From Candidatus Omnitrophota bacterium (lineage in GTDB: Bacteria; Omnitrophota; Gorgyraeia; 2-01-FULL-45-10), in contig JAMWCX010000003.1 of the NCBI GenBank assembly GCA_023818895.1, positions 270,001-302,000 of the forward strand: a stretch of 32,000 bases of DNA, given 5' to 3'. Of the stretch, positions 3,509-29,507 are shown piece after piece (position 1 is the first letter of the stretch; every line of letters starts with the position of its first letter). The notes beneath the pieces are model-generated. The model did no database searches, had not been told where the DNA came from, and saw nothing but the letters and a program-made list of their open reading frames with translations. The position numbers were made by a program, and so were the translations under genes.

Positions 3509-3995
3509 AAGGATATTTTTTAAATCGCTTGCGCTCATGCTGGCCGTGTTTGTTCTGAGTGCATGCGCCCCAAGAGGCTTGCGCGTGGCGGACGCAGCGC
3601 CCGATTTCAGGCTTCGTGACATAAATGGGAATATTGTCCAGCTGTCTGACCACAAAGGAAAGGTCATAATACTTGACTTCTTCGCCACGTGGTGTCCACC
3701 GTGCAAGATGGAAGTCCCGGATTTTGTGGAATTGCAGCGGCGCTACGGCGATAGAGGCTTCACGATAATAGGAGTATCGCTTTCAAGACTGGGCGATACG
3801 CAAGGCTTCGTGCAGGCTTTCGGCGTCAATTATCCGGTTCTTATAGCCGATAGTGCCGTAGCGGAGGCATATGGGCCAATAAGGTCGATACCGGTCACTT
3901 TTGTTATAGACAAGGATTTCAATATTGCCAGGAAGTATATAGGTTACAGGCCTAAAGAGGTCTTCGAGAACGATATAAAACAGCTGCTCAAATAG
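3501..3995 (+). CDS. TlpA/ResA-family thiol:disulfide oxidoreductase lipoprotein
   Basis: Lipobox VLSAC after a signal peptide. Thioredoxin fold with a WCPPC active site (ILDFFATWCPPCKMEVP). Typical CcdA partner. Confidence 0.85.
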   Translation: MNKRIFFKSLALMLAVFVLSACAPRGLRVADAAPDFRLRDINGNIVQLSDHKGKVIILDFFATWCPPCKMEVPDFVELQRRYGDRGFTIIGVSLSRLGDTQGFVQAFGVNYPVLIADSAVAEAYGPIRSIPVTFVIDKDFNIARKYIGYRPKEVFENDIKQLLK

Positions 3996-19746: not shown

Positions 19747-20301
19747 GTGGTTGTGAAGAAAATATCCAAAAGCGGATGCGAAGGGATTCTGTGCGCCGGA
19801 TTCGGCGGTCAGGGCATAATGTTTATGGGGAAGCTTCTTGCCGAAGCTGGGCTTCTTGCGGGAAAACGTGTGACATGGATGCCTTCCTATGGTGCCGAAG
19901 TAAGAGGTGGCACCGCATATTCAATGACTAAGATATCTAAGGAGGCGATAGCAAGTCCCATAGTTACAAGTCCGGATGTCTTGATAGCGATGAATAAGCC
20001 GTCGCTTGTGAAATATGAGGCAAATGTCAGGCCCGGTGGTCTGCTGATATACAACAAAACGCTCGTGGATGTTTTGCCTAAGAGAAAAGACGTAAAGATA
20101 ATCGGTGTGCCAATGACGGAACTTGCTTCAAAACTAGGCAATACCAGATGCGCGAACATGATAGCTCTCGGCGTGTTTCTAAAAAGGTCAAAAGCCGTCT
20201 CGATTAGATACGCTGTAAACGCCCTTAAAGCTGCCCTCAAGAATAGGGAAGATCTTTTTGCTCTTAATAAAAAAGCGCTTGAGAAAGGGTACAGTCTGTG
20301 A
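19747..20301 (+). CDS. korC: 2-oxoacid:ferredoxin oxidoreductase gamma subunit
   Basis: GTG start. ILCAGFGGQGIMFMGKLLA and SYGAEVRGG motifs typical of gamma subunits. Confidence 0.85.
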   Translation: MVVKKISKSGCEGILCAGFGGQGIMFMGKLLAEAGLLAGKRVTWMPSYGAEVRGGTAYSMTKISKEAIASPIVTSPDVLIAMNKPSLVKYEANVRPGGLLIYNKTLVDVLPKRKDVKIIGVPMTELASKLGNTRCANMIALGVFLKRSKAVSIRYAVNALKAALKNREDLFALNKKALEKGYSL

Positions 20302-20302
20302 T

Positions 20303-21583
20303 ATGGTCCGTGTAAGATTTGCCCCCAGCCCTACCGGTTATCTCCATATCGGGAGCGCAAGGACCGCGCTCTTCAACTGGCTCTACGCCCGCCATTACGG
20401 CGGTAAATTCCTTTTGCGCATAGAAGATACCGATAAGACCCGTTCAGAAAAGAAGTACCTCGATGAGATATTGACCGACCTGCGCTGGCTCGGTCTGGAC
20501 TGGGACGAGGAGCCGATATATCAGTCAGAGCGTTTCGACGTCTATCGTGCCTCCGCTGAGGAACTCGTAAGGTCGGGCAAGGCCTATCGCGAGGGAGAGG
20601 CTTATATATTCAGGATCGAAAAAGGTAGAACCATTACCTTCGATGACATGATCCACGGCAAGGTCTCCGTGAACACTGATGATATCAAGGACCAGGTTCT
20701 TATAAAATCGGACGGCTCTCCCGCATACAATTTCTGCTGTGTTATAGACGACGCATTCCTCAATATAACCCATATAATTCGCGGGGACGATCATATTTCA
20801 AATACCCCAAAGCAGATACTTTTCTACGAAGCGCTGGGGCTACAAAGCCCGCAGTTCGGGCATATGCCGCTTATCATGGGCCAGGATGGAGCAAAGCTAT
20901 CCAAGCGGCATGGCGGAGTGGCTGTAGAAGAATATAAGCGTCAGGGTTTCCTGCCGGAGTCGTTGGTGAACTATCTGCTTCTTCTCGGATGGTCGCCAGG
21001 TGACGACCGGCAGATAATTTCGCTTTCAGAAGCCGTAAAAATTTTTGATATAAAGGATATGAGAGGCGTTCAGGCGAAATTCGATTTGCAGAAATTGCGC
21101 TGGATGAACGGTGAGTATATAGCAGCGAAAAAGACTTCGGAGCTTCTTCCGCTCATTAAAAAACAGATTGCCGATGCCGCCAAAGAGATTCCGCCCGACG
21201 ACAAGCTTGCTAAAGTCATAGACCTTTACAAGGTGAGAATAAAGACGCTTTCCGAATTTATACCGATGACAGACCACTTCTTTAGTGATGTGTACACAGT
21301 CGAGGAAAAGGGCGTGGAGAAGTATTTAAAGCCCGCGGAGTCTAAAATGATCCTGCGCCAATTTGCCGATCGCATCGAGAGCTTGTCTGAATTTTCGCAT
21401 GAGAACCTTGAAAAGACATGCCGCACCCTTGCCGAGGAAAAAGGCCTCAAGACAGCCCAGATAATCCATCCGACGCGGGTCGCGATAAGCGGCAAGACAA
21501 CAGGGGCGGGGCTTTTCGAGATGATGGAGGTGCTGGGTAAAGAAAAGGTTCTGGAGCGTCTTCGGATGGCGCAGGGCGCCTAA
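20303..21583 (+). CDS. gltX: glutamate--tRNA ligase (short form, 426 aa)
   Basis: The listed ORF (20258) overlaps korC. ATG 20303 gives MVRVRFAPSPTGYLHIGSARTALFNW (HIGS) and KLSKR (KMSKS). It lacks the Cys-rich insertion between AY(K/R) and the IFRI strand (see findings). Confidence 0.93.
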   Translation: MVRVRFAPSPTGYLHIGSARTALFNWLYARHYGGKFLLRIEDTDKTRSEKKYLDEILTDLRWLGLDWDEEPIYQSERFDVYRASAEELVRSGKAYREGEAYIFRIEKGRTITFDDMIHGKVSVNTDDIKDQVLIKSDGSPAYNFCCVIDDAFLNITHIIRGDDHISNTPKQILFYEALGLQSPQFGHMPLIMGQDGAKLSKRHGGVAVEEYKRQGFLPESLVNYLLLLGWSPGDDRQIISLSEAVKIFDIKDMRGVQAKFDLQKLRWMNGEYIAAKKTSELLPLIKKQIADAAKEIPPDDKLAKVIDLYKVRIKTLSEFIPMTDHFFSDVYTVEEKGVEKYLKPAESKMILRQFADRIESLSEFSHENLEKTCRTLAEEKGLKTAQIIHPTRVAISGKTTGAGLFEMMEVLGKEKVLERLRMAQGA

Positions 21584-21592
21584 ATTTTTGGC

Positions 21593-23287
21593 ATGGAAAA
21601 GAGTATAACCACCAATTTCATACGCGATATAATCGACGAGCACATAAGAATCGGTCGTTTTGGCGGCAGAGTACATACACGTTTTCCGCCAGAGCCTAAC
21701 GGATATCTTCACATAGGCCACGCTAAGGCCATTTGCATAAGCTTCGGCATAGCGCGAGACTACAACGGCCTTTGCAACCTGCGGATGGATGACACAAACC
21801 CAGAGAAAGAGGAGTCCGAATATGTAAACGCCATAATCGAGGATGTGCGTTGGCTCGGTTTTGACTGGGGCGATCGCCTTTACTACGCTTCGGATTACTT
21901 TGAAAAGCTTTACGGGTACGCACTCGAGCTGATAAAACTCGGAAAGGCCTATGTCTGCGACCTTAACGCTGAACAGATCCGGGATTTTAGAGGCACCCTT
22001 ACCGAGCCCGGGAAGAATTCTCCGTTTCGCGACCGTTCCGTAAAGGAAAATCTCGATCTTTTTGAGCGCATGAGAAAAGGAGAATTCCCGGATGGCAGCC
22101 GCACCTTGCGCGCAAAGATAGACATGGCAAGCCCCAATATCATAATGCGAGATCCGGTTCTTTATCGCATAAAGCGGGAAAATCACCACAGGACAGCGGA
22201 TAAGTGGTGCATTTATCCAATGTACGATTTCGCCCATTGTCTTTCCGATTCGATAGAAGGTATAACCCATTCCATATGCACCCTTGAATTCGAGAATAAC
22301 AGACCGCTTTACGACTGGATACTCGACCAGTTGAAGGTCCACCATCCCCAGCAGATAGAATTCGCCAGGCTCAACCTATCGCACACAGTTCTTTCTAAGC
22401 GTAAACTTTTACAGCTGGTGCAGGATTCAAATGTAGAGGGCTGGGATGATCCGCGCATGCCTACCATATCGGGCTTAAGGCGCCGTGGCTACACGCCGTC
22501 TTCAATAAGAAATTTTTGCGACAGTATCGGCGTGTCGAAGGTAGATTCCATAGTTGATATTACCGTGCTGGAAAACACTATACGAGAGGAACTTAACAAG
22601 AGTGCGCCGCGAGCGATGGCGGTAATAAAGCCGCTCAAAGTCGTCATAACCAACTACCCCGAAGGCAAAACTGAGGAGCTGGAGGCTATAAATAATCCAG
22701 AGGATCTATCAGCCGGTACACGCAAAGTGCCTTTTTCGAGAGAGCTTTATATCGAACAGGAAGATTTTCAGGAGACCCCCCCGCCTAAATTCTTCAGGCT
22801 TTCGCCAGGTAAGGAGGTCCGGCTGAGGTACGCCTATTTCGTGAAATGCATAGGGGTCGTTAAAGACCCAAAGACGGGCCAGATCATCGAAGTCCATTGC
22901 ACCTATGACCCGGCTACGCGCGGGGGAGACGCGCCTGACGGACGCAAGGTCAAGGCTACGCTCCATTGGGTGTCCGCTCGCCATGCCATAGAGGCCGAGG
23001 TCAGACTGTATGAGCTTCTCTTTACAGCAAGAAACCCCAATGATGTGCCGGAGGGCGTAGATTTCAGATCCAATCTGAACCCCAAGTCGCTTGAGATACT
23101 TAAAGAAGCCAGGCTTGAGCCATTCCTCAAAGATGCCCCACCAGGCAGCCGTTATCAGTTTGAGAGGCTGGGGTATTTTTATCTAGATCCGGTTTTTGCA
23201 AAGGCGGGAAAAAGAGTCTTTAACCGAATAGTTACCCTTAAAGATAGTTGGGCGAAGGAGGCTAAAAAGGGCCTTGAAAAGCGTTGA
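21593..23287 (+). CDS. glnS: glutamine--tRNA ligase
   Basis: 564 aa. [17 protein letters not shown] (HIGH), VLSKRKL (KMSKS), and C-terminal beta-barrel anticodon-binding region characteristic of GlnRS. Confidence 0.95.
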
Positions 23288-23312
23288 AAATCGGGCGCTT
23301 TTGATATAGAAT
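23284..23312 (+). promoter_or_regulatory. candidate promoter for the tRNA-Gln transcription unit
   Basis: TTGAAA (23284..23289, overlapping the glnS stop), a 17-nt spacer, then TAGAAT (23307..23312). About 100 nt upstream of tRNA-Gln. Confidence 0.4.
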
Positions 23313-23412
23313 TTAGAGGCGATTTTTCGTAATGTTTGCGCCGATATGTCCGCAATGCCTCTTCGTATATTTCTTAACGGCGTTTTGGTGTCAGAATTTA
23401 TCTCGCAAACAC

Positions 23413-23486
23413 TGACGGGTAGTGTAACGGCAGCACAGCAGACTCTGGATCTGCTTGTCTAGGTTCAAATCCTAGCCCGTCAGCCA
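23413..23486 (+). tRNA. tRNA-Gln (anticodon CUG), CCA encoded
   Basis: Manual cloverleaf. Acceptor tgacggg/cccgtca (U1-A72, G73), D stem gtgt/gcac, anticodon stem gcaga/tctgc with loop ctCTGga, T arm ctagg-ttcaaat-cctag, 3' gCCA. Confidence 0.9.
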
Positions 23487-23633
23487 ATATAAAAAATCCT
23501 CCTGTAGCTTGAGATGCTAGGATTTGAAACAAAATTTGCGCCGACCAACGGGAGGAAAAGGCCTCTGGCCGTAAGCAAATTTTGATGGTCTGAAGCCACC
23601 TCTGGCGGATGAAGACCAAATCCTAGCCAGGCA
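23487..23633 (+). ncRNA. tRNA-linked structured element, copy A (core 23516..23627)
   Basis: About 80% identical in its core to the units after tRNA-Leu. Predicted helices: P1 23516..23525/23618..23627, P2 23530..23539/23575..23584, P3 23587..23591/23613..23617. The 3' strand of P1 copies the T-loop/T-stem segment caaatcctagcc of the adjacent tRNA-Gln. A terminator follows. Confidence 0.45.
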
Positions 23634-23638
23634 ATAAT

Positions 23639-23677
23639 AAAGACTCTACAAGTACTTCTGGGGAAGTCTTTTTATTT
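23639..23677 (+). terminator. probable intrinsic terminator (may also serve the convergent DedA gene)
   Basis: Outer stem aaagact/agtcttt, inner stem acttc(23654..23658)-tggg-gaagt(23663..23667), then cTTTTTaTTT. Located between the converging tRNA-Gln unit and the minus-strand gene. Confidence 0.5.
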
Positions 23678-23685
23678 GCGAATAT

Positions 23686-24306
23686 TTATTTCAGATACTT
23701 GATCGCTAGAAAACCGCCGACGAGGAGCAGGATAAATACGATAGAGAATATATCGAAATATTTCTCGATCGTATTTTCTATCTTCTTGCCGAATATCCTC
23801 AGGGCACCTGCGACGATAAAGAACCGGCCGGCCCTGCCTATGATAGAGGCTGTCACAAGTGTTAGAAGCGGGATTCTGAAAAGTCCGGCGGCGATTGTTA
23901 TAACTTTATAAGGTATTGGCGTGAAAGCGGCGGTGAAGATCGTCAAGAACGCGTTCTCCGCGTATTTTCGACCCACAACATCCATCATCGGCTGCAGATG
24001 GTATGTGTTTACTATGAGTTTTCCCACCGTTTCATATAGGCTCCAACCTATGAAATAACCGAAAAACGCCCCTGTTACAGATCCGACCGTGCATACCGCT
24101 GCGTCAACTATCCACCTTTTTCTGTTCGCCACTACCATTGCGATAAGGAGAATATCTGGAGGGATAAGGAAGAACGAGCTTTCGATAAATGCGATGCCGA
24201 ATAGGGCATACGGAGCCTGGGGTGTCTTTGCCCAATGCAGTGTCCAGTCATATAGATATCTGAAGAAACGTATCGGCAGTATTATTATGTCCGCAACCAT
24301 CCGCAT
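23686..24306 (-). CDS. DedA/YqaA-family membrane protein
   Basis: 206 aa. FIESSFFLIPPDILLI motif, GRAGRF motif, 4-5 TM helices. The only convincing minus-strand gene in the window. Confidence 0.85.
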   Translation of the reverse strand: MRMVADIIILPIRFFRYLYDWTLHWAKTPQAPYALFGIAFIESSFFLIPPDILLIAMVVANRKRWIVDAAVCTVGSVTGAFFGYFIGWSLYETVGKLIVNTYHLQPMMDVVGRKYAENAFLTIFTAAFTPIPYKVITIAAGLFRIPLLTLVTASIIGRAGRFFIVAGALRIFGKKIENTIEKYFDIFSIVFILLLVGGFLAIKYLK

Positions 24307-24393
24307 ATTCTTTTGGGCCTTTCCTTAAAAATCGCTTTCGTATATTCTACCAATATCCTAAAGCTATGCAAGGTATTTCGGAGAGAAAACTGC

Positions 24394-24422
24394 TTGATAT
24401 TTTAAGCCTGCCTCACTATAAT
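24394..24422 (+). promoter_or_regulatory. near-consensus sigma70 promoter of the tRNA-Leu/repeat/tRNA-Glu unit
   Basis: TTGATA (24394..24399), a 17-nt spacer, then TATAAT (24417..24422). 27 nt before tRNA-Leu. Confidence 0.65.
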
Positions 24423-24449
24423 AACATGGTAAAAGTTCGCTCTTTTTAC

Positions 24450-24534
24450 GCGGAGATGGTGGAACTGGCAGACACGCATGTTTGAGGGGCATGTGCCGCA
24501 AGGCTTGGGGGTTCAAATCCCCCTCTCCGCACCA
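24450..24534 (+). tRNA. tRNA-Leu (anticodon GAG), CCA encoded
   Basis: 85 nt. Acceptor gcggaga/tctccgc, anticodon stem catgt/gcatg with loop ttGAGgg, long variable arm gcc-gcaa-ggc, T arm ggggg-ttcaaat-ccccc, aCCA. Confidence 0.9.
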
Positions 24535-24678
24535 TGTTGTTTGATAGTAGTAACGGCAGAAGGGATTTGAAGCCAATTTGCGCCGACGAACAGGAGGAAA
24601 AGTCCTCTGGACGTAAGCAAATTGGCCGGTCTGAAGCAAGCTATGCGAGCGGAAGACCAAATCCCCCTCTCCGCACCA
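24535..24678 (+). ncRNA. tRNA-linked structured element, copy B1 (core 24562..24665)
   Basis: Helices: P1 gggattt 24562..24568 / aaatccc 24659..24665; P2 ccaatttgc 24573..24581 / gcaaattgg 24617..24625; inner hairpin caggagg/cctctgg; P3 ggtct 24628..24632 / agacc 24654..24658. Lies inside a tRNA operon. Confidence 0.45.
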
Positions 24679-24822
24679 TGTTGTTTGATAGTAGTAACGG
24701 CAGAAGGGATTTGAAGCCAATTTGCGCCGACGAACAGGAGGAAAAGTCCTCTGGACGTAAGCAAATTGGCCGGTCTGAAGCAAGCTATGCGAGCGGAAGA
24801 CCAAATCCCCCTCTCCGCACCA
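24679..24822 (+). ncRNA. tRNA-linked structured element, copy B2
   Basis: Identical to copy B1, shifted by 144 nt. Followed after 7 nt by tRNA-Glu. Confidence 0.45.
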
Positions 24823-24829
24823 TAAACCT

Positions 24830-24907
24830 GGCCCCATCGTCTAGCCCGGCCTAGGACGTTAGGTTCTCAGCCTAAAGACCGGGGTTCAAATCCCCGTGGG
24901 GCTACCA
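24830..24907 (+). tRNA. tRNA-Glu (anticodon CUC), CCA encoded
   Basis: Acceptor ggcccca/tggggct, D arm gtct-agcccggccta-ggac, anticodon stem ttagg/cctaa with loop ttCTCag, T arm cgggg-ttcaaat-ccccg, aCCA. Confidence 0.9.
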
Positions 24908-25000
24908 CTTATCATAACTCAAGTTTGTAACCACGCCCAATAAGGTCGGCAAAATTCGAACCTCAGTTCAGTATCGAGCGGATGAAGCGGCTTCAGTTTA

Positions 25001-25086: not shown

Positions 25087-25383
25087 ATGAAGCGCAAAAC
25101 TGTGGCAAACGAAGCGGAATCAGCAGGTATCAGCATGGACGAGCCGATAATGACCACAGGGGTGGTGTCGGGTATTCTTCATATGCCTCTATGGGTTCTC
25201 AAACAGCTCGACAAGCATAAGATAGTTTCGCCAAAACGCAGGAAAGGGATGGGCAGGCTGTATTCTCAAAGAGAATTTAACAAGTTAAAGCATATATGGT
25301 ATTTAATGAAAGTTCGCCGTGTGAAGGTTGATGGGATTAAAGTTATATTAGAGATGGAAGCAAAAGGATATAAGACGGTATAA
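25087..25383 (+). CDS. hspR: MerR-family heat-shock regulator, HspR-like
   Basis: 98 aa. The MerR HTH plus wing, GVVSGILHMPLWVLKQLDKHKIVSPKRRKGMGRLYSQREFNKLKHIWYL...GIKVILEME, aligns by eye with HspR (VAAQLSGLHPQTLRQYDRLGLVSPDR..GRRYS..D...L). Sits in front of chaperone genes. Confidence 0.75.
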   Translation: MKRKTVANEAESAGISMDEPIMTTGVVSGILHMPLWVLKQLDKHKIVSPKRRKGMGRLYSQREFNKLKHIWYLMKVRRVKVDGIKVILEMEAKGYKTV

Positions 25384-25400
25384 ATTTTTTTGAGCAGGAA

Positions 25401-25427
25401 TTAGCACTCGCATAGAAGGAGTGCTAA
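25401..25427 (+). promoter_or_regulatory. CIRCE operator (HrcA binding site), perfect consensus
   Basis: TTAGCACTC-gcatagaag-GAGTGCTAA matches TTAGCACTC-N9-GAGTGCTAA exactly. 41 nt upstream of the first hsp20 ATG. Confidence 0.9.
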
Positions 25428-25467
25428 ATAATTAGATTCAGAACAGGAACGAAAGGGGGTGTTTGTT

Positions 25468-25938
25468 ATGGCACTTGTACCGTGGAGACCGAGGGATTTT
25501 TGGTGGGACCCGCTGTATGACCTGGATAACATCCAGAGGCAGATGAACAACCTTTTCAATCTCTCGCTTTCTCGCTTTCCGGAAAGGGAAGTAGGCCTTT
25601 TGGAGGGGGTGTGGAATCCCGCTATGGATATCTATGATTCTAAGGATAACTTGCTCGTGAAGGTAGATATACCAGGGATGAAAAAAGAAGATATAGATGT
25701 TTCAGTTCACGGAAACACCCTTGTCATAAAAGGCGAAAAGAAGCAGGAACGCGAAGTGAAGGAAAAGGATTATGTAAGAACCGAAAGGTTCTACGGGACC
25801 TTTAACAGGGCAGTAACTCTTCCTGCCGCAGTGGATGCTGGTAAGGTCCAGGCAACGTACAAGAATGGTGTCCTTGAGCTTGTCTTGCCGAAAAAGGAGG
25901 AGGCCAAGCCCAAACAGATTAAAGTAGATGTGAAATAA
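25468..25938 (+). CDS. Hsp20/alpha-crystallin small heat-shock protein
   Basis: ATG 25468 (MALVPWRP) is preferred over GTG 25459. ACD motifs PAMDIYDSKDNLLVKVDIPGMKKEDIDV and TYKNGVLELVLPK. Confidence 0.92.
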   Translation: MALVPWRPRDFWWDPLYDLDNIQRQMNNLFNLSLSRFPEREVGLLEGVWNPAMDIYDSKDNLLVKVDIPGMKKEDIDVSVHGNTLVIKGEKKQEREVKEKDYVRTERFYGTFNRAVTLPAAVDAGKVQATYKNGVLELVLPKKEEAKPKQIKVDVK

Positions 25939-25981
25939 CCATCTTTAAAGACGAAATCCAGACGAAAGGGGGTGTTAAGTT

Positions 25982-26350
25982 ATGGCACTAGGTCTTAAAA
26001 AGAATGCCAAGCAAACCTTAGCGCAGATAGCTCCGCTGGTAACCGTGCGTGAAACAGATAAAGAGGTTATCCTCGAAGCCGAAATGGCGGGTCTGGATAA
26101 AGATAGCATTAAAATAGAGTTAAAAGGCGATGAACTCACGATAGGGGGTGTCCGTAAAAATGAAGATGTACCGAAGGGCTACACACCTCTTAGCAGAGAA
26201 AGATGCCCATTCGAGTACTCGCGGACGTTTGTACTGGGCAATGAGGTGGATAAAGAAAAGCTGAGCGCCCAGTATAATGACGGTGTTCTTAAAATCACCG
26301 TGCCCAAAAGTGAGAGTAATCAGCCAAAAAAGATACCTATTAAGGATTAA
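25982..26350 (+). CDS. Hsp20-family small heat-shock protein (short N-terminal arm)
   Basis: VRETDKEVILEAEMAGLDKDSIKIELKGDELTIGG ... AQYNDGVLKITVPK. Shares a 15-nt leader block with the previous gene. Confidence 0.85.
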   Translation: MALGLKKNAKQTLAQIAPLVTVRETDKEVILEAEMAGLDKDSIKIELKGDELTIGGVRKNEDVPKGYTPLSRERCPFEYSRTFVLGNEVDKEKLSAQYNDGVLKITVPKSESNQPKKIPIKD

Positions 26351-26425
26351 GAATGGCGGGCGCCTGAGGCCTAGAAGGACTGCCTCACGCGCCCAGGAGC
26401 TATGTGTTTCGAGGTGGTGAAGACA

Positions 26426-27073
26426 ATGAAGATGAAAATATTGATCGGAGTGGTTATTCTGCTTTTATTAGTGCTGATCGGAGAGACGGCATATATTCTG
26501 TATATAGGGAAAGAACCGAATAGAGTAGGTATCCAAAAGACATCAAAAGCTCCGCATTCAATAGTTTCTCTCAAAAGGCATCCTATTACCCTATACGAAG
26601 AGGCCTATGACGAATGGGATCCTTTTGAAGAGATGAGGCTTATGCAAGCGCAGATGAACCGAATATTTAGAAATAGTTTTTCCCGCGCCTTGCTGAGTCA
26701 AGCATTTCCTGTGTCAAAACGAAGCGCTTTTTTTGAGCCGGATATAGACTTTGAAGACAGCGGTAAATTCTATATAGCAAGAATAGACCTCCCCGGGATG
26801 GATAAAGATAAAATAAATATAGAACTAAAAAATAACATGCTGACCATATCGGGCGAAAGGAGTATAGAGCGCGAAGAGGCTCGACCTGCCGATCAATTCT
26901 ATTCTAAGGAAAGAAGTTTCGGATATTTTTCAAGAACTATCCCGATGCCGGCTGACGCCAAAAGCGAGGGCATGACGGCAGAGTATGACAAAGGGGTGCT
27001 TGTAATAAAAATTCCGAAGGAAGACGTAGGTGTATCAACTCAAAAGGCATCCACAAAAATCAGAGTAGATTAG
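26426..27073 (+). CDS. membrane-anchored Hsp20-domain protein
   Basis: GAGGTGG 8 nt before ATG 26426. N-terminal TM helix MKMKILIGVVILLLLVLIGETAYILYIG, a linker of about 90 aa, then an ACD (PDIDFEDSGKFYIARIDLPGMDKDKINIELKNNMLTISGER ... AEYDKGVLVIKIPK). Confidence 0.8.
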   Translation: MKMKILIGVVILLLLVLIGETAYILYIGKEPNRVGIQKTSKAPHSIVSLKRHPITLYEEAYDEWDPFEEMRLMQAQMNRIFRNSFSRALLSQAFPVSKRSAFFEPDIDFEDSGKFYIARIDLPGMDKDKINIELKNNMLTISGERSIEREEARPADQFYSKERSFGYFSRTIPMPADAKSEGMTAEYDKGVLVIKIPKEDVGVSTQKASTKIRVD

Positions 27074-27098
27074 AATGCGAGAAGAAGGAGGGCAATTT

Positions 27099-27191
27099 AT
27101 GGATTCGTTTATGTATGTCCAGAATTATTGCGCCCTTCTTTCATATATTTATGAAAAATGGAGGAAAAAGATAAGACAAAGAAGCAGTTAA
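27099..27191 (+). CDS. possible 30-codon small ORF
   Basis: AAGGAGGG (27085..27092) lies 6 nt before ATG 27099. Translation MDSFMYVQNYCALLSYIYEKWRKKIRQRSS, stop TAA 27189..27191. No other support. Confidence 0.2.
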   Translation: MDSFMYVQNYCALLSYIYEKWRKKIRQRSS

Positions 27192-27581
27192 AAAGAGGGG
27201 CGCGTTTTTGAATAATAGTCTATCGCCGCAATCTATTAATAGATATTCTGAAGGCTGTTGTGCGCATTAATTTATGAGGACAAAATAACACCTATCAAAA
27301 ACGGGTCTTAAAAAACAATTTCAGATAAAACAAAGGCAGAAACTGAAAAGGCGCAAAGAGCGAAAACGCCTTTTGGAGAAGAAGCTGAACCCAGACGACT
27401 TCTTCTACGGCAGATACTATGTAGGGGATAGCGTTATCAAGTTCTGCGATAATCTGGTCAGGGGAACCGAAAGTTCCGCAGAAGCGGCATCCAAAAAATA
27501 AAATCAACCGGACGCCGTAAAAATTTCTATACGGCGAAAAACTATATTGGAAAAATAAAACAGAAAAGGAGGGATTGAGGT

Positions 27582-27872
27582 ATGCAGATAGTGCCATTAG
27601 CCGACAGGGTATTGGTCAGGCCTCTCGAGGCTGAGGAGAAGACCAAGGGAGGGATAATTCTGCCGGATACCGCAAAAGAAAAACCGCAGGAAGGAAAAGT
27701 CATAGCTGTGGGCAAGGGGAAGGTATCAGACGACGGCAAGTTACAGCCTATGGAAGTTAAGGTAGGCGATAAAGTTCTCTATGGGAAATATTCCGGAACA
27801 GAGATCAAAATAGAGGATATAGAACATCTTATAATACGCCAAGAAGATATACTAGCGGTCATTAAGGATTGA
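27582..27872 (+). CDS. groES: co-chaperonin GroES
   Basis: [55 protein letters not shown]. Confidence 0.97.
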
Positions 27873-27878
27873 ATTTAG

Positions 27879-29507
<1,629 letters not shown>

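Follow-up and report, generated by a model that had tools for sequence, protein, structure and literature searches.

A family of short elements, characterized by a conserved fold and by two arms that follow whichever transfer RNA (tRNA) or transfer-messenger RNA (tmRNA) gene lies upstream, is present in three copies in the stretch of DNA analysed here, a 32,000-nt window of contig JAMWCX010000003.1 from a Candidatus Omnitrophota bacterium. One copy lies behind the gene of tRNA-Gln(CUG) and two tandem copies lie behind that of tRNA-Leu(GAG). A previous interpretation of the letters of the window (hereafter, the sequence-only reading) had proposed that they represent a new tRNA-linked structured RNA. 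The family is real and undescribed: we collected at least 89 copies of about 100-200 nt in 68 loci, and a single scaffold is shared by at least seven phyla. Our favoured interpretation, to which we give a probability of roughly 40%, is that the element is a tRNA-cognate structured RNA composed of a scaffold and an antisense arm that is masked by an internal decoy, and that it spreads between tRNA loci by recombination. This interpretation best accounts for the selection on the fold across multiple phyla, for the strand preference and, above all, for the complementarity that is maintained between the antisense arm and the tRNA.

A conserved fold across phyla

The core pattern of the element (GCGCCGAC N4-6 GGAGGAAAAG), found three times in the window versus 0.29 expected occurrences, was scanned over contigs representing one genome per species. 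It matched at least 119 stretches, about half of which are true relatives. A covariance model built from 25 copies identified at least 79 copies in 62 sources, comprising all three copies of the window (E 1e-19 to 1e-20) and 76 copies elsewhere, and ten further copies were found in eight metagenome contigs with the window's own subfamily. The existence of homologues, anticipated in the sequence-only reading, was borne out by these searches. The hosts belong to Omnitrophota (the phylum of the window), Treponema and other Spirochaetota, Planctomycetia (Planctomycetota), Nitrospira (Nitrospirota), delta-proteobacterial bins, Elusimicrobiota and Gemmatimonadota.

The element had not been matched to any known RNA family in the sequence-only reading, and this was also the outcome of our database searches. 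Only the three tRNAs of the window score at the gathering threshold against Rfam 15, whose families include tRNA, tmRNA, RNase P, 6S, SRP, Y RNA-like RNAs, self-cleaving ribozymes, HEARO and GOLLD/ROOL, and at E<=10 over positions 23300-25000 no match overlaps the units, except for weak chance matches of microRNA or plastid families on the tRNA T-arm. The same search on 19 loci of the family retrieved only tRNAs and one group I intron. Core-pattern scans of viral contigs returned zero matches and then two chance matches in coding sequence, blastn searches of plasmid and phage collections returned no family member, and no description of such an element was found in full-text literature searches. 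A similarity to an RNase P-like motif (GGAGGAAAG) was considered and rejected: conservation does not extend to the bases that follow it, and the RNase P models do not score.

The conserved scaffold is ~90 nt long. A copy as a whole consists, from 5' to 3', of the 5' strand of helix P1, a junction starting with AA, helix P2, one G, the small hairpin P2a, AAAA, the hairpin P2b, the motif (C)GNCA, the 3' strand of P2, a short junction, P3 and the 3' strand of P1, which follows without a linker. P2a has the form CC-GA-C(N)...(N)G-GA-GG, P2b is a hairpin of free sequence with only 3-4 bp in the window, and P3 is composed of a stem, a 3x3 purine loop, 2 bp, a 2x2 G.A loop and a hairpin. The inner part of P2 forms tandem G.A pairs in the family and two Watson-Crick pairs instead in the subfamily of the window. 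In the copy behind tRNA-Gln (the Gln copy, + strand), P1 is formed by 23516-23525 with 23618-23627, and the P2 domain, supported by the minimum free energy fold and by covariation in the family, covers 23530-23584. Within this domain, P2 pairs 23530-23539 with 23575-23584, P2a (CC-GA-CC..GG-GA-GG) occupies 23541-23555, an A-rich linker 23556-23559 and the mini-hairpin P2b (GGCC-TCT-GGCC) 23560-23570. The P3 hairpin (ggtct ... agacc) with its internal loops lies at 23587-23617; it is drawn from the minimum free energy fold, and P3 covaries in copies of the spirochaete class. The first of the two units behind tRNA-Leu has the corresponding parts at 24562-24568 with 24659-24665 (P1), 24573-24581 with 24617-24625 (P2), 24583-24597 (P2a), 24602-24612 (P2b) and 24628-24658 (P3).

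The helices P1, P2 and P3 had been drawn by eye in the sequence-only reading, and all of their coordinates and strands agree with the sequence, including the direct contact between P3 (ggtct/agacc) and the 3' strand of P1. The three-way junction claimed for both versions was recovered by minimum free energy folding with z-scores of -3.4 to -4.1, and at most one of 200 shuffled sequences (0-1/200) folds equally well. The complementarity of P2 also stands; its interior, taken as a single hairpin, does not, since the family shows two hairpins, P2a and P2b.

Two blocks are shared by the Gln and Leu copies, one of 49 nt (92% identity) and one of 46 nt (74% identity), and the alignment of the three window copies has a mean column identity of 82%. 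Four substitutions separate the Gln and Leu cores and, as the claim of compensatory changes implied, all are located in paired positions, changing a G.A into a C-G pair in P2a and a U-A into a G-C pair in P2b. The diverged Gln copy therefore constitutes a small covariation test that was passed, since its four substitutions fall in two pairs. The same is seen on the scale of the family. Complementarity is kept in the homologues, with 92.3% of the cells paired versus 70.6% in shuffled alignments, and 18 of the 20 pairs of the model alignment present changes on both sides. None of 500 shuffles attained any of our measures, and slid controls on the same alignment gave far lower pairing than observed. 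The stems of P2b are almost purely Watson-Crick and yet comprise dozens of distinct sequences, and covariation is seen at 10 of the 11 pairs of P3 in the spirochaete class. These results indicate that selection acts on a single-stranded fold rather than on duplex sites bound by proteins, since the stems covary while their sequence changes freely. A secondary structure supported by covariation on one strand, as seen here, is the generic mark of a structured non-coding RNA. In copies of the spirochaete class, we also observed that the terminal loops of P2b and P3c are near-identical (C-A-N-G-G-A-Y-G and C-A-G/C-G-A-R-G), a likeness that suggests two equivalent binding sites or a loop-loop contact.

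The fold has a preferred strand. Of 69 distinct copies, 56 form a more stable structure on the + strand, the sense strand of the tRNA, than on the - strand, and the mean difference is -2.9 kcal/mol (p about 1e-6). Purines make up 66% of the core, and the tandem G.A pairs and the GAAA or GAA loops are motifs of the + strand, the other strand presenting U.C tandems. We considered a minus-strand RNA, which would have the better tRNA copy at its 3' end and with which the nested terminators, being bidirectional, are compatible. This was rejected as the main interpretation because the + strand folds better in most copies and because the G.A tandems, GNRA loops and purine-rich loops are found on that strand. 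A small open reading frame (ORF) behind a GGAGG motif was ruled out as well: its ATG falls in the loop of a hairpin and lacks conservation. In the window, the Leu units are enclosed by tRNA-Leu and tRNA-Glu without an intervening promoter-like site and the Gln copy lies directly behind tRNA-Gln. In these positions, the copies of the window must therefore be transcribed on the + strand. It is their location within tRNA operons that suggests a stable transcript, although upstream terminators at other loci call for caution, and the folded species may be RNA.

Two arms matched to the neighbouring gene

The sequence-only reading had placed the element 3' of tRNA genes. Across the family, 52 of the 89 copies lie downstream of a same-strand tRNA or tmRNA gene at a distance of at most 150 nt and 13 follow another copy of the element, giving 65 copies behind a tRNA or tmRNA gene. 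Twelve more lie at a contig edge, and the remaining 12 have no detectable upstream tRNA. These last are partly explained: in one case the upstream tRNA contains a group I intron, in another a tRNA-like 3' end precedes the copy, and several copies come second, after one that sits at a contig edge. The intron (Rfam RF00028, 61.6 bits; L079, 6191-6413) interrupts the tRNA immediately upstream of the copy, a tRNA that was missed by ARAGORN. Fifteen tRNA isotypes are used as hosts in addition to tmRNA, and the claim that P1 mirrors the upstream tRNA holds across the 15. Copies linked to the tmRNA gene ssrA were found in five loci (L052, L070, L073, L104 and L032), four of them from Treponema. The Treponema tmRNA loci carry one to three copies each, with arms matched to the T-arm of tmRNA. 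The association with a given gene can persist across species, as seen for tmRNA in the four Treponema loci and for tRNA-SeC in three loci (L025, L051 and L074). The spacers between gene and element differ at every locus.

Each copy is delimited by two arms. The shorter of the two, the 3' arm (a), repeats the tRNA in sense orientation from C56 in the T-loop onward, usually up to the exact end of the gene: where the gene encodes CCA, the arm includes it, and otherwise the arm stops at the discriminator base. An origin of this arm from mature tRNA by reverse transcription was rejected because the copies of genomes without encoded CCA lack CCA (L092, L022, L089 and L073). The 5' arm (a') matches the upstream tRNA in antisense, with perfect complementarity along 9-21 nt. 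Its match starts at T54 (G52 in spirochaetes) and extends to a position between 63 and 73, covering the T-loop, the 3' strand of the T-stem and the acceptor 3' strand. In nearly every locus, a' matches the real tRNA over a longer stretch than it matches the downstream copy. In L084, for instance, a' complements positions 52-72 of tRNA-Leu (21 nt), the terminator hairpin of the tRNA being nested between the two, and in L005 it complements positions 54-73 of tRNA-Pro (20 nt).

The arms of the window follow the same rules. Behind tRNA-Gln(CUG) (23413-23486, +; predicted by ARAGORN, Rfam tRNA 62.7 bits) and a locus-specific spacer (23487-23515, +), arm a' (GCTAGGATTTGAA; 23516-23528, +) provides the 5' strand of P1 and is antisense to the T-loop and the 3' strand of the T-stem. 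It is a perfect 13-nt complement of positions 23464-23476 of the tRNA, versus 11 bp with the downstream copy; the corresponding lengths in the Leu copy are 10 and 8 nt. The 3' arm of the Gln copy (CAAATCCTAGCC, then a degenerate tail; 23617-23633, +) provides the 3' strand of P1 and is a sense copy of tRNA-Gln from C56, forming a direct repeat of 88% identity over 17 nt with 23466-23482. tRNA-Leu(GAG) (24450-24534, +), preceded by a promoter-like site at 24394-24422, is followed by two tandem units of 144 nt that are 100% identical. Unit 1 (24535-24678, +; covariance-model match 24562-24665, 73.9 bits) comprises a spacer (24535-24561), a' (24562-24571) and, after the helices described above, arm a with the tRNA 3' end through CCA (24658-24678, +). 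Unit 2 spans 24679-24822 (+), with its covariance-model match at 24706-24809. tRNA-Glu(CUC) (24830-24907, +), which carries no element, starts 7 nt past unit 2, and we therefore consider the Leu units to lie inside a tRNA operon. A 22-nt exact repeat (CAAATCCCCCTCTCCGCACCAT) corresponding to the 3' part of the tRNA occurs three times in the window while the tRNA itself remains intact, a pattern that recurs at most loci. The first 27-29 nt of each copy had been described as unrelated. The spacers indeed cannot be aligned between the Gln and Leu copies, although those of the Leu copy partly extend P1.

L005 and L019 are corresponding tRNA-Pro loci from two Treponema genomes. Their spacers are heavily diverged. 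The acceptor 3' strands of their tRNAs differ at two positions (TGTTGTCCC versus TGTCATCCC), and the arms a' (GGGACAACA versus GGGATGACA) have changed at the two complementary positions. Because a' changed in step with the tRNA while the spacer diverged, the complementarity between a' and the tRNA is maintained over time and is not a mere relic of insertion.

Functional RNA or mobile repeat

In the favoured interpretation, arm a would pair with the inner part of a' to form P1 and close the three-way junction. Arm a' would then have two competing partners: the built-in decoy a, which would yield a closed form, and the genuine 3' strand of the tRNA, which would yield an open form. The element would thus combine a protein-binding scaffold with a module that works like a guide or decoy for one tRNA. 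We infer that a' pairs with the tRNA and that a partner protein exists. Copies would be spread and lost through recombination at the near-universal T-loop, after which the arms would be re-matched to their new neighbour. The tandem sheared G.A motifs of the scaffold recall K-turn-type protein-binding sites, but they are symmetric and lack the 3-nt bulge of K-turns. Riboswitch aptamers and T-box leaders likewise have a junction of several helices whose closing P1 contains a strand with an alternative partner and, as in T-boxes, specificity for one tRNA would be achieved by pairing. In contrast to these systems, the element is located 3' of a tRNA gene rather than in the leader of an mRNA, and no regulated gene follows it; its predicted pairing partners are the T-loop and the acceptor 3' strand instead of the anticodon and NCCA, and it has no Rfam match.

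Several observations weigh against this interpretation. At many loci, a terminator-like hairpin followed by a T-run separates the tRNA from a', and such terminators leave as little as 10-20 nt for a promoter. G.U pairs are rare (about 1-3% of the pairs) and, outside P1, no more numerous than A.C combinations (7 versus 6; 34 versus 22 overall), a scarcity equally compatible with single-stranded DNA and with RNA. An antisense arm would not readily gain access to a mature tRNA that is already folded. No partner protein was found in the clustering of neighbouring ORFs or in the Pfam scan described below. Conservation of the core motif is overstated, since the family was ascertained by a pattern of that motif. 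The element is also dispensable: three related Omnitrophota contigs (L130, L136 and L137) present tRNA-Leu(GAG) and a downstream tRNA-Glu(CUC) with no copy between them. Finally, 17 of the 68 loci contain two or more copies, often in perfect tandem, and truncated (L083, L109, L114, L070 and L005), chimeric and tandem copies are common, which looks like the behaviour of selfish repeats. Among the chimeras, L110 has two arms from different tRNAs. In L061 (1129-1946), an array of tRNA-Met, element, tRNA-Val, element, tRNA-Val and element, the middle copy combines a Val-type 5' arm with a Met-type 3' arm and flank, making it a recombinant of copies 1 and 3; its tRNA-Val was apparently duplicated by unequal recombination between element cores.

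The main alternative, which we consider somewhat unlikely, is a selfish integrative repeat that carries no protein of its own and homes to tRNA and tmRNA genes at their T-loop and 3' end, with the fold acting as a handle for a trans-acting and probably host-encoded recombinase. The fold might then form in single-stranded DNA, as in integron attC sites and the attP(+) hairpin of CTX phage, the P1 duplex would represent target homology and transcription would be incidental. The repeat behaviour and element-free relatives described above speak for this alternative, as does the att-like direct repeat from C56 to the exact end of the gene. tRNA and tmRNA genes are typical targets, and partial tRNA duplications from integrating elements are known and widespread (PMC9897764). 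In L130, where only 25 nt separate tRNA-Leu(GAG) from tRNA-Glu(CUC), the spacer (3803-3829, -; TTATTTGTACCATAAAAC; TTATTTGTACCATAAAACTACACCC) resembles the start of a window unit followed by ACCA+TAAACC and may be a deletion footprint. Copies at different tRNAs of one genome share subfamily features, as do the Gln and Leu copies of the window, which points to recent spread. A few orphan copies adjoin TIR-like, metal-efflux and Fic genes, G.U pairs are about as frequent as A.C, and the upstream terminators suggest that transcription is unnecessary.

The element resembles tRNA- and tmRNA-targeting integrative elements and their recombinase-less derivatives in its site at the tRNA 3' end, in the direct repeat from T-loop to gene end that leaves the tRNA intact, in its tandem accretions and in its decayed distal copies. 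Unlike them, it is only ~100-200 nt long, has no cargo or integrase recurring nearby and is absent from the phage and plasmid collections that we searched. Its likeness to attC sites and the CTX hairpin lies in the conservation of structure over sequence, in imperfect stems with unpaired purines, in folding of one strand and in arrays of short, hairpin-ended units that share the outer repeat with the next unit. It differs from them in lacking cassette ORFs and an intI or dif context, in having the tRNA T-loop as target, in its long target-specific arms and in a branched 90-nt core whose sequence is conserved across phyla. The boxes of attC (RYYYAAC ... GTTRRRY) are not reproduced either, with no match to GTTRRRY within 23487-23633 or 24535-24822, so that an R box of the attC type is missing. 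The sequence-only reading had itself raised the possibility of a miniature inverted-repeat transposable element (MITE), with copies scattered at non-tRNA sites and bearing target-site duplications; such copies were not seen. In contrast to a MITE, the arms vary per locus, following the tRNA, and they are neither flanked by a duplication nor constant terminal inverted repeats.

More generally, a selfish repeat fits poorly with the neighbourhood of the element: across 60 or more loci, we found no recurrent gene for an integrase, transposase or reverse transcriptase. When 355 neighbouring ORFs from 61 loci were clustered all against all, the only recurrent groups were ABC-F, HD-domain and similar housekeeping ones. 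A Pfam scan of 136 neighbouring ORFs likewise showed only housekeeping families and no recurrent integrase, transposase or reverse transcriptase among the families shared by at least two ORFs; because the display was restricted to such families, an isolated integrase may still lie beside single loci. No copy was found in viral contigs, phage genomes or plasmids. The spacers are locus-specific, so no conserved segment borne by the element is associated with the tRNA 3' end. The arm a' stays perfectly complementary while the spacer diverges, which would not be expected of a dead insertion, barring gene conversion. Finally, conservation of a 90-nt scaffold across phyla is unusual for non-coding selfish repeats.

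A more far-reaching possibility, which we regard as rather unlikely, is a guide-RNA-like system directed against the cell's own tRNAs or tmRNA, in which a protein-binding scaffold would carry a programmable antisense arm of 10-21 nt specific to the 3' half of one tRNA and gated by the decoy. The guide arm could pair with RNA, for surveillance, repair, sequestration or modification, or with the gene, for RNA- or single-stranded DNA-guided homing. A structured scaffold combined with a programmable complementary segment of 10-21 nt is also found in archaeal box C/D sRNAs, in the omega RNAs of TnpB and IscB and in the bridge RNAs of IS110. However, the seven matches to box C (RTGATGA) in the window all lie outside the units, and no nuclease or recombinase gene recurs near the copies as it would for omega and bridge RNAs. 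In contrast to known guide RNAs, the guide would be partly masked by an internal sense copy and its target would be a tRNA.

It appears quite improbable that the element is a cis-acting processing or insulating signal in which P1 and the tRNA-derived tail, ending in NCCA in the Leu units of the window, mimic an acceptor/T-arm minihelix for RNase P, RNase Z or 3' exonucleases, so that cutting or stopping there would set the boundaries of both the upstream tRNA and the element. Some units begin 0-4 nt past the tRNA and end in a copy of the acceptor 3' strand with CCA (L091, L014 and the Leu units of the window), and P1 extends through the acceptor strand over 17 bp in L040, 15 bp in L047 and partly in the Leu copy of the window. 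The position of the window copies within tRNA operons would also suit such a signal. The T-stem and acceptor 3' strands, the CCA of the Leu units and a P1 that can extend into an acceptor-like helix recall tRNA-like 3' structures such as minihelices, mascRNA and the ends of viruses and retroplasmids. Yet the element has no T-loop, D arm or anticodon arm, its T-loop bases are buried in a helix and its tail is often truncated; the window units remain unscored by ARAGORN and by the Rfam models of tRNA, tmRNA and mascRNA. Many copies have lost the acceptor part of the 3' arm or retain it in decayed form (the Gln copy of the window, L084, L019, L050 and L024), a mimic would need neither a match to the neighbouring tRNA nor a conserved 90-nt scaffold, and related genomes process the same tRNA-Leu/tRNA-Glu pair without the element.

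Lastly, ordinary scars or attachment sites of integrase-driven genomic islands, with the conserved region as a double-stranded attP arm beside attR, would explain the direct repeat of the tRNA 3' end, the orphan copies at the edges of accessory clusters and the frequency of integration-derived tRNA fragments (PMC9897764), but they are very improbable given that the stems covary with free sequence as expected of a single-stranded fold, that most copies lie 0-130 nt from a tRNA without cargo or integrase, and that neither such a fold nor a tRNA-matched antisense arm is known from att sites. Since the element lacks a defining feature of each known system tested, be it an Rfam score, an adjacent integrase or nuclease, R boxes, box C/D, a leader location or terminal repeats with target duplications, we consider it to be new.

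Genomic neighbourhood and significance

In the window, the neighbours of the element encode GluRS, GlnRS, DedA, HSP20 and GroEL, and what follows the units is another tRNA or a convergent gene. The GluRS and GlnRS genes lie directly upstream of tRNA-Gln (20258-23287). Right behind the Gln copy, a hairpin (AAAGACT...AGTCTTT) followed by TTTTATTT (23639-23680) looks like the terminator of the tRNA-Gln unit, although it was not flagged by our consensus scan. Downstream of tRNA-Glu, a heat-shock cluster (25087-29507) comprises a MerR-type regulator, three HSP20 genes and one chaperonin gene of the Cpn60/GroEL family. The array of tRNAs and elements is itself overlapped by ORFs of 83-157 amino acids (24364-24837, -; 24513-24764, -; 24534-24854, +), which are almost certainly artefacts that gene callers could annotate.

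Gene order was compared starting from the DedA gene, whose protein is 100% identical to one from a Candidatus Omnitrophica bin. It showed little conservation, L130, L136 and L137 being the only informative contigs. In L136 (1680-2429, -) and in the same region of L137, an ORF of 249 amino acids without a Pfam hit lies between tRNA-Leu(GAG) and tRNA-Glu(CUC) and is preceded by a partial copy of the tRNA-Glu 5' end (GACCCCATCGTCTAACCC...), which looks like a different insertion in the same tRNA operon. Orphan copies without a nearby tRNA adjoin accessory-type genes at three loci: several hypothetical ORFs, DUF5655 and a ThsB-TIR-like protein in L024 (1-6200), genes for cation efflux, a cupredoxin and Fic in L110, and an ORF of 2166 amino acids with a MutS domain in L011. 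Such orphans may mark the far ends of larger islands.

In practice, annotation is confused by the partial tRNA genes and spurious ORFs to which these copies give rise. The copies also mediate rearrangements such as the tRNA-Val duplication of L061, and they account for tandem repeats behind tRNA genes in metagenome-assembled genomes. If the element is selfish, it would be a protein-less mobile element whose targeting by base complementarity and conserved fold make it a natural, compact programmable module. If it is a functional RNA, it would rank among the more widespread undescribed families of structured RNAs in bacteria, and it would be the sole such family with a specificity arm against the T-loop and acceptor strand of tRNA, raising questions of tRNA surveillance, tRNA-fragment sensing or control of tRNA maturation in the poorly studied Omnitrophota, Spirochaetota and Planctomycetota. 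Under the guide interpretation, it would constitute the first family of tRNA-cognate guides in bacteria.

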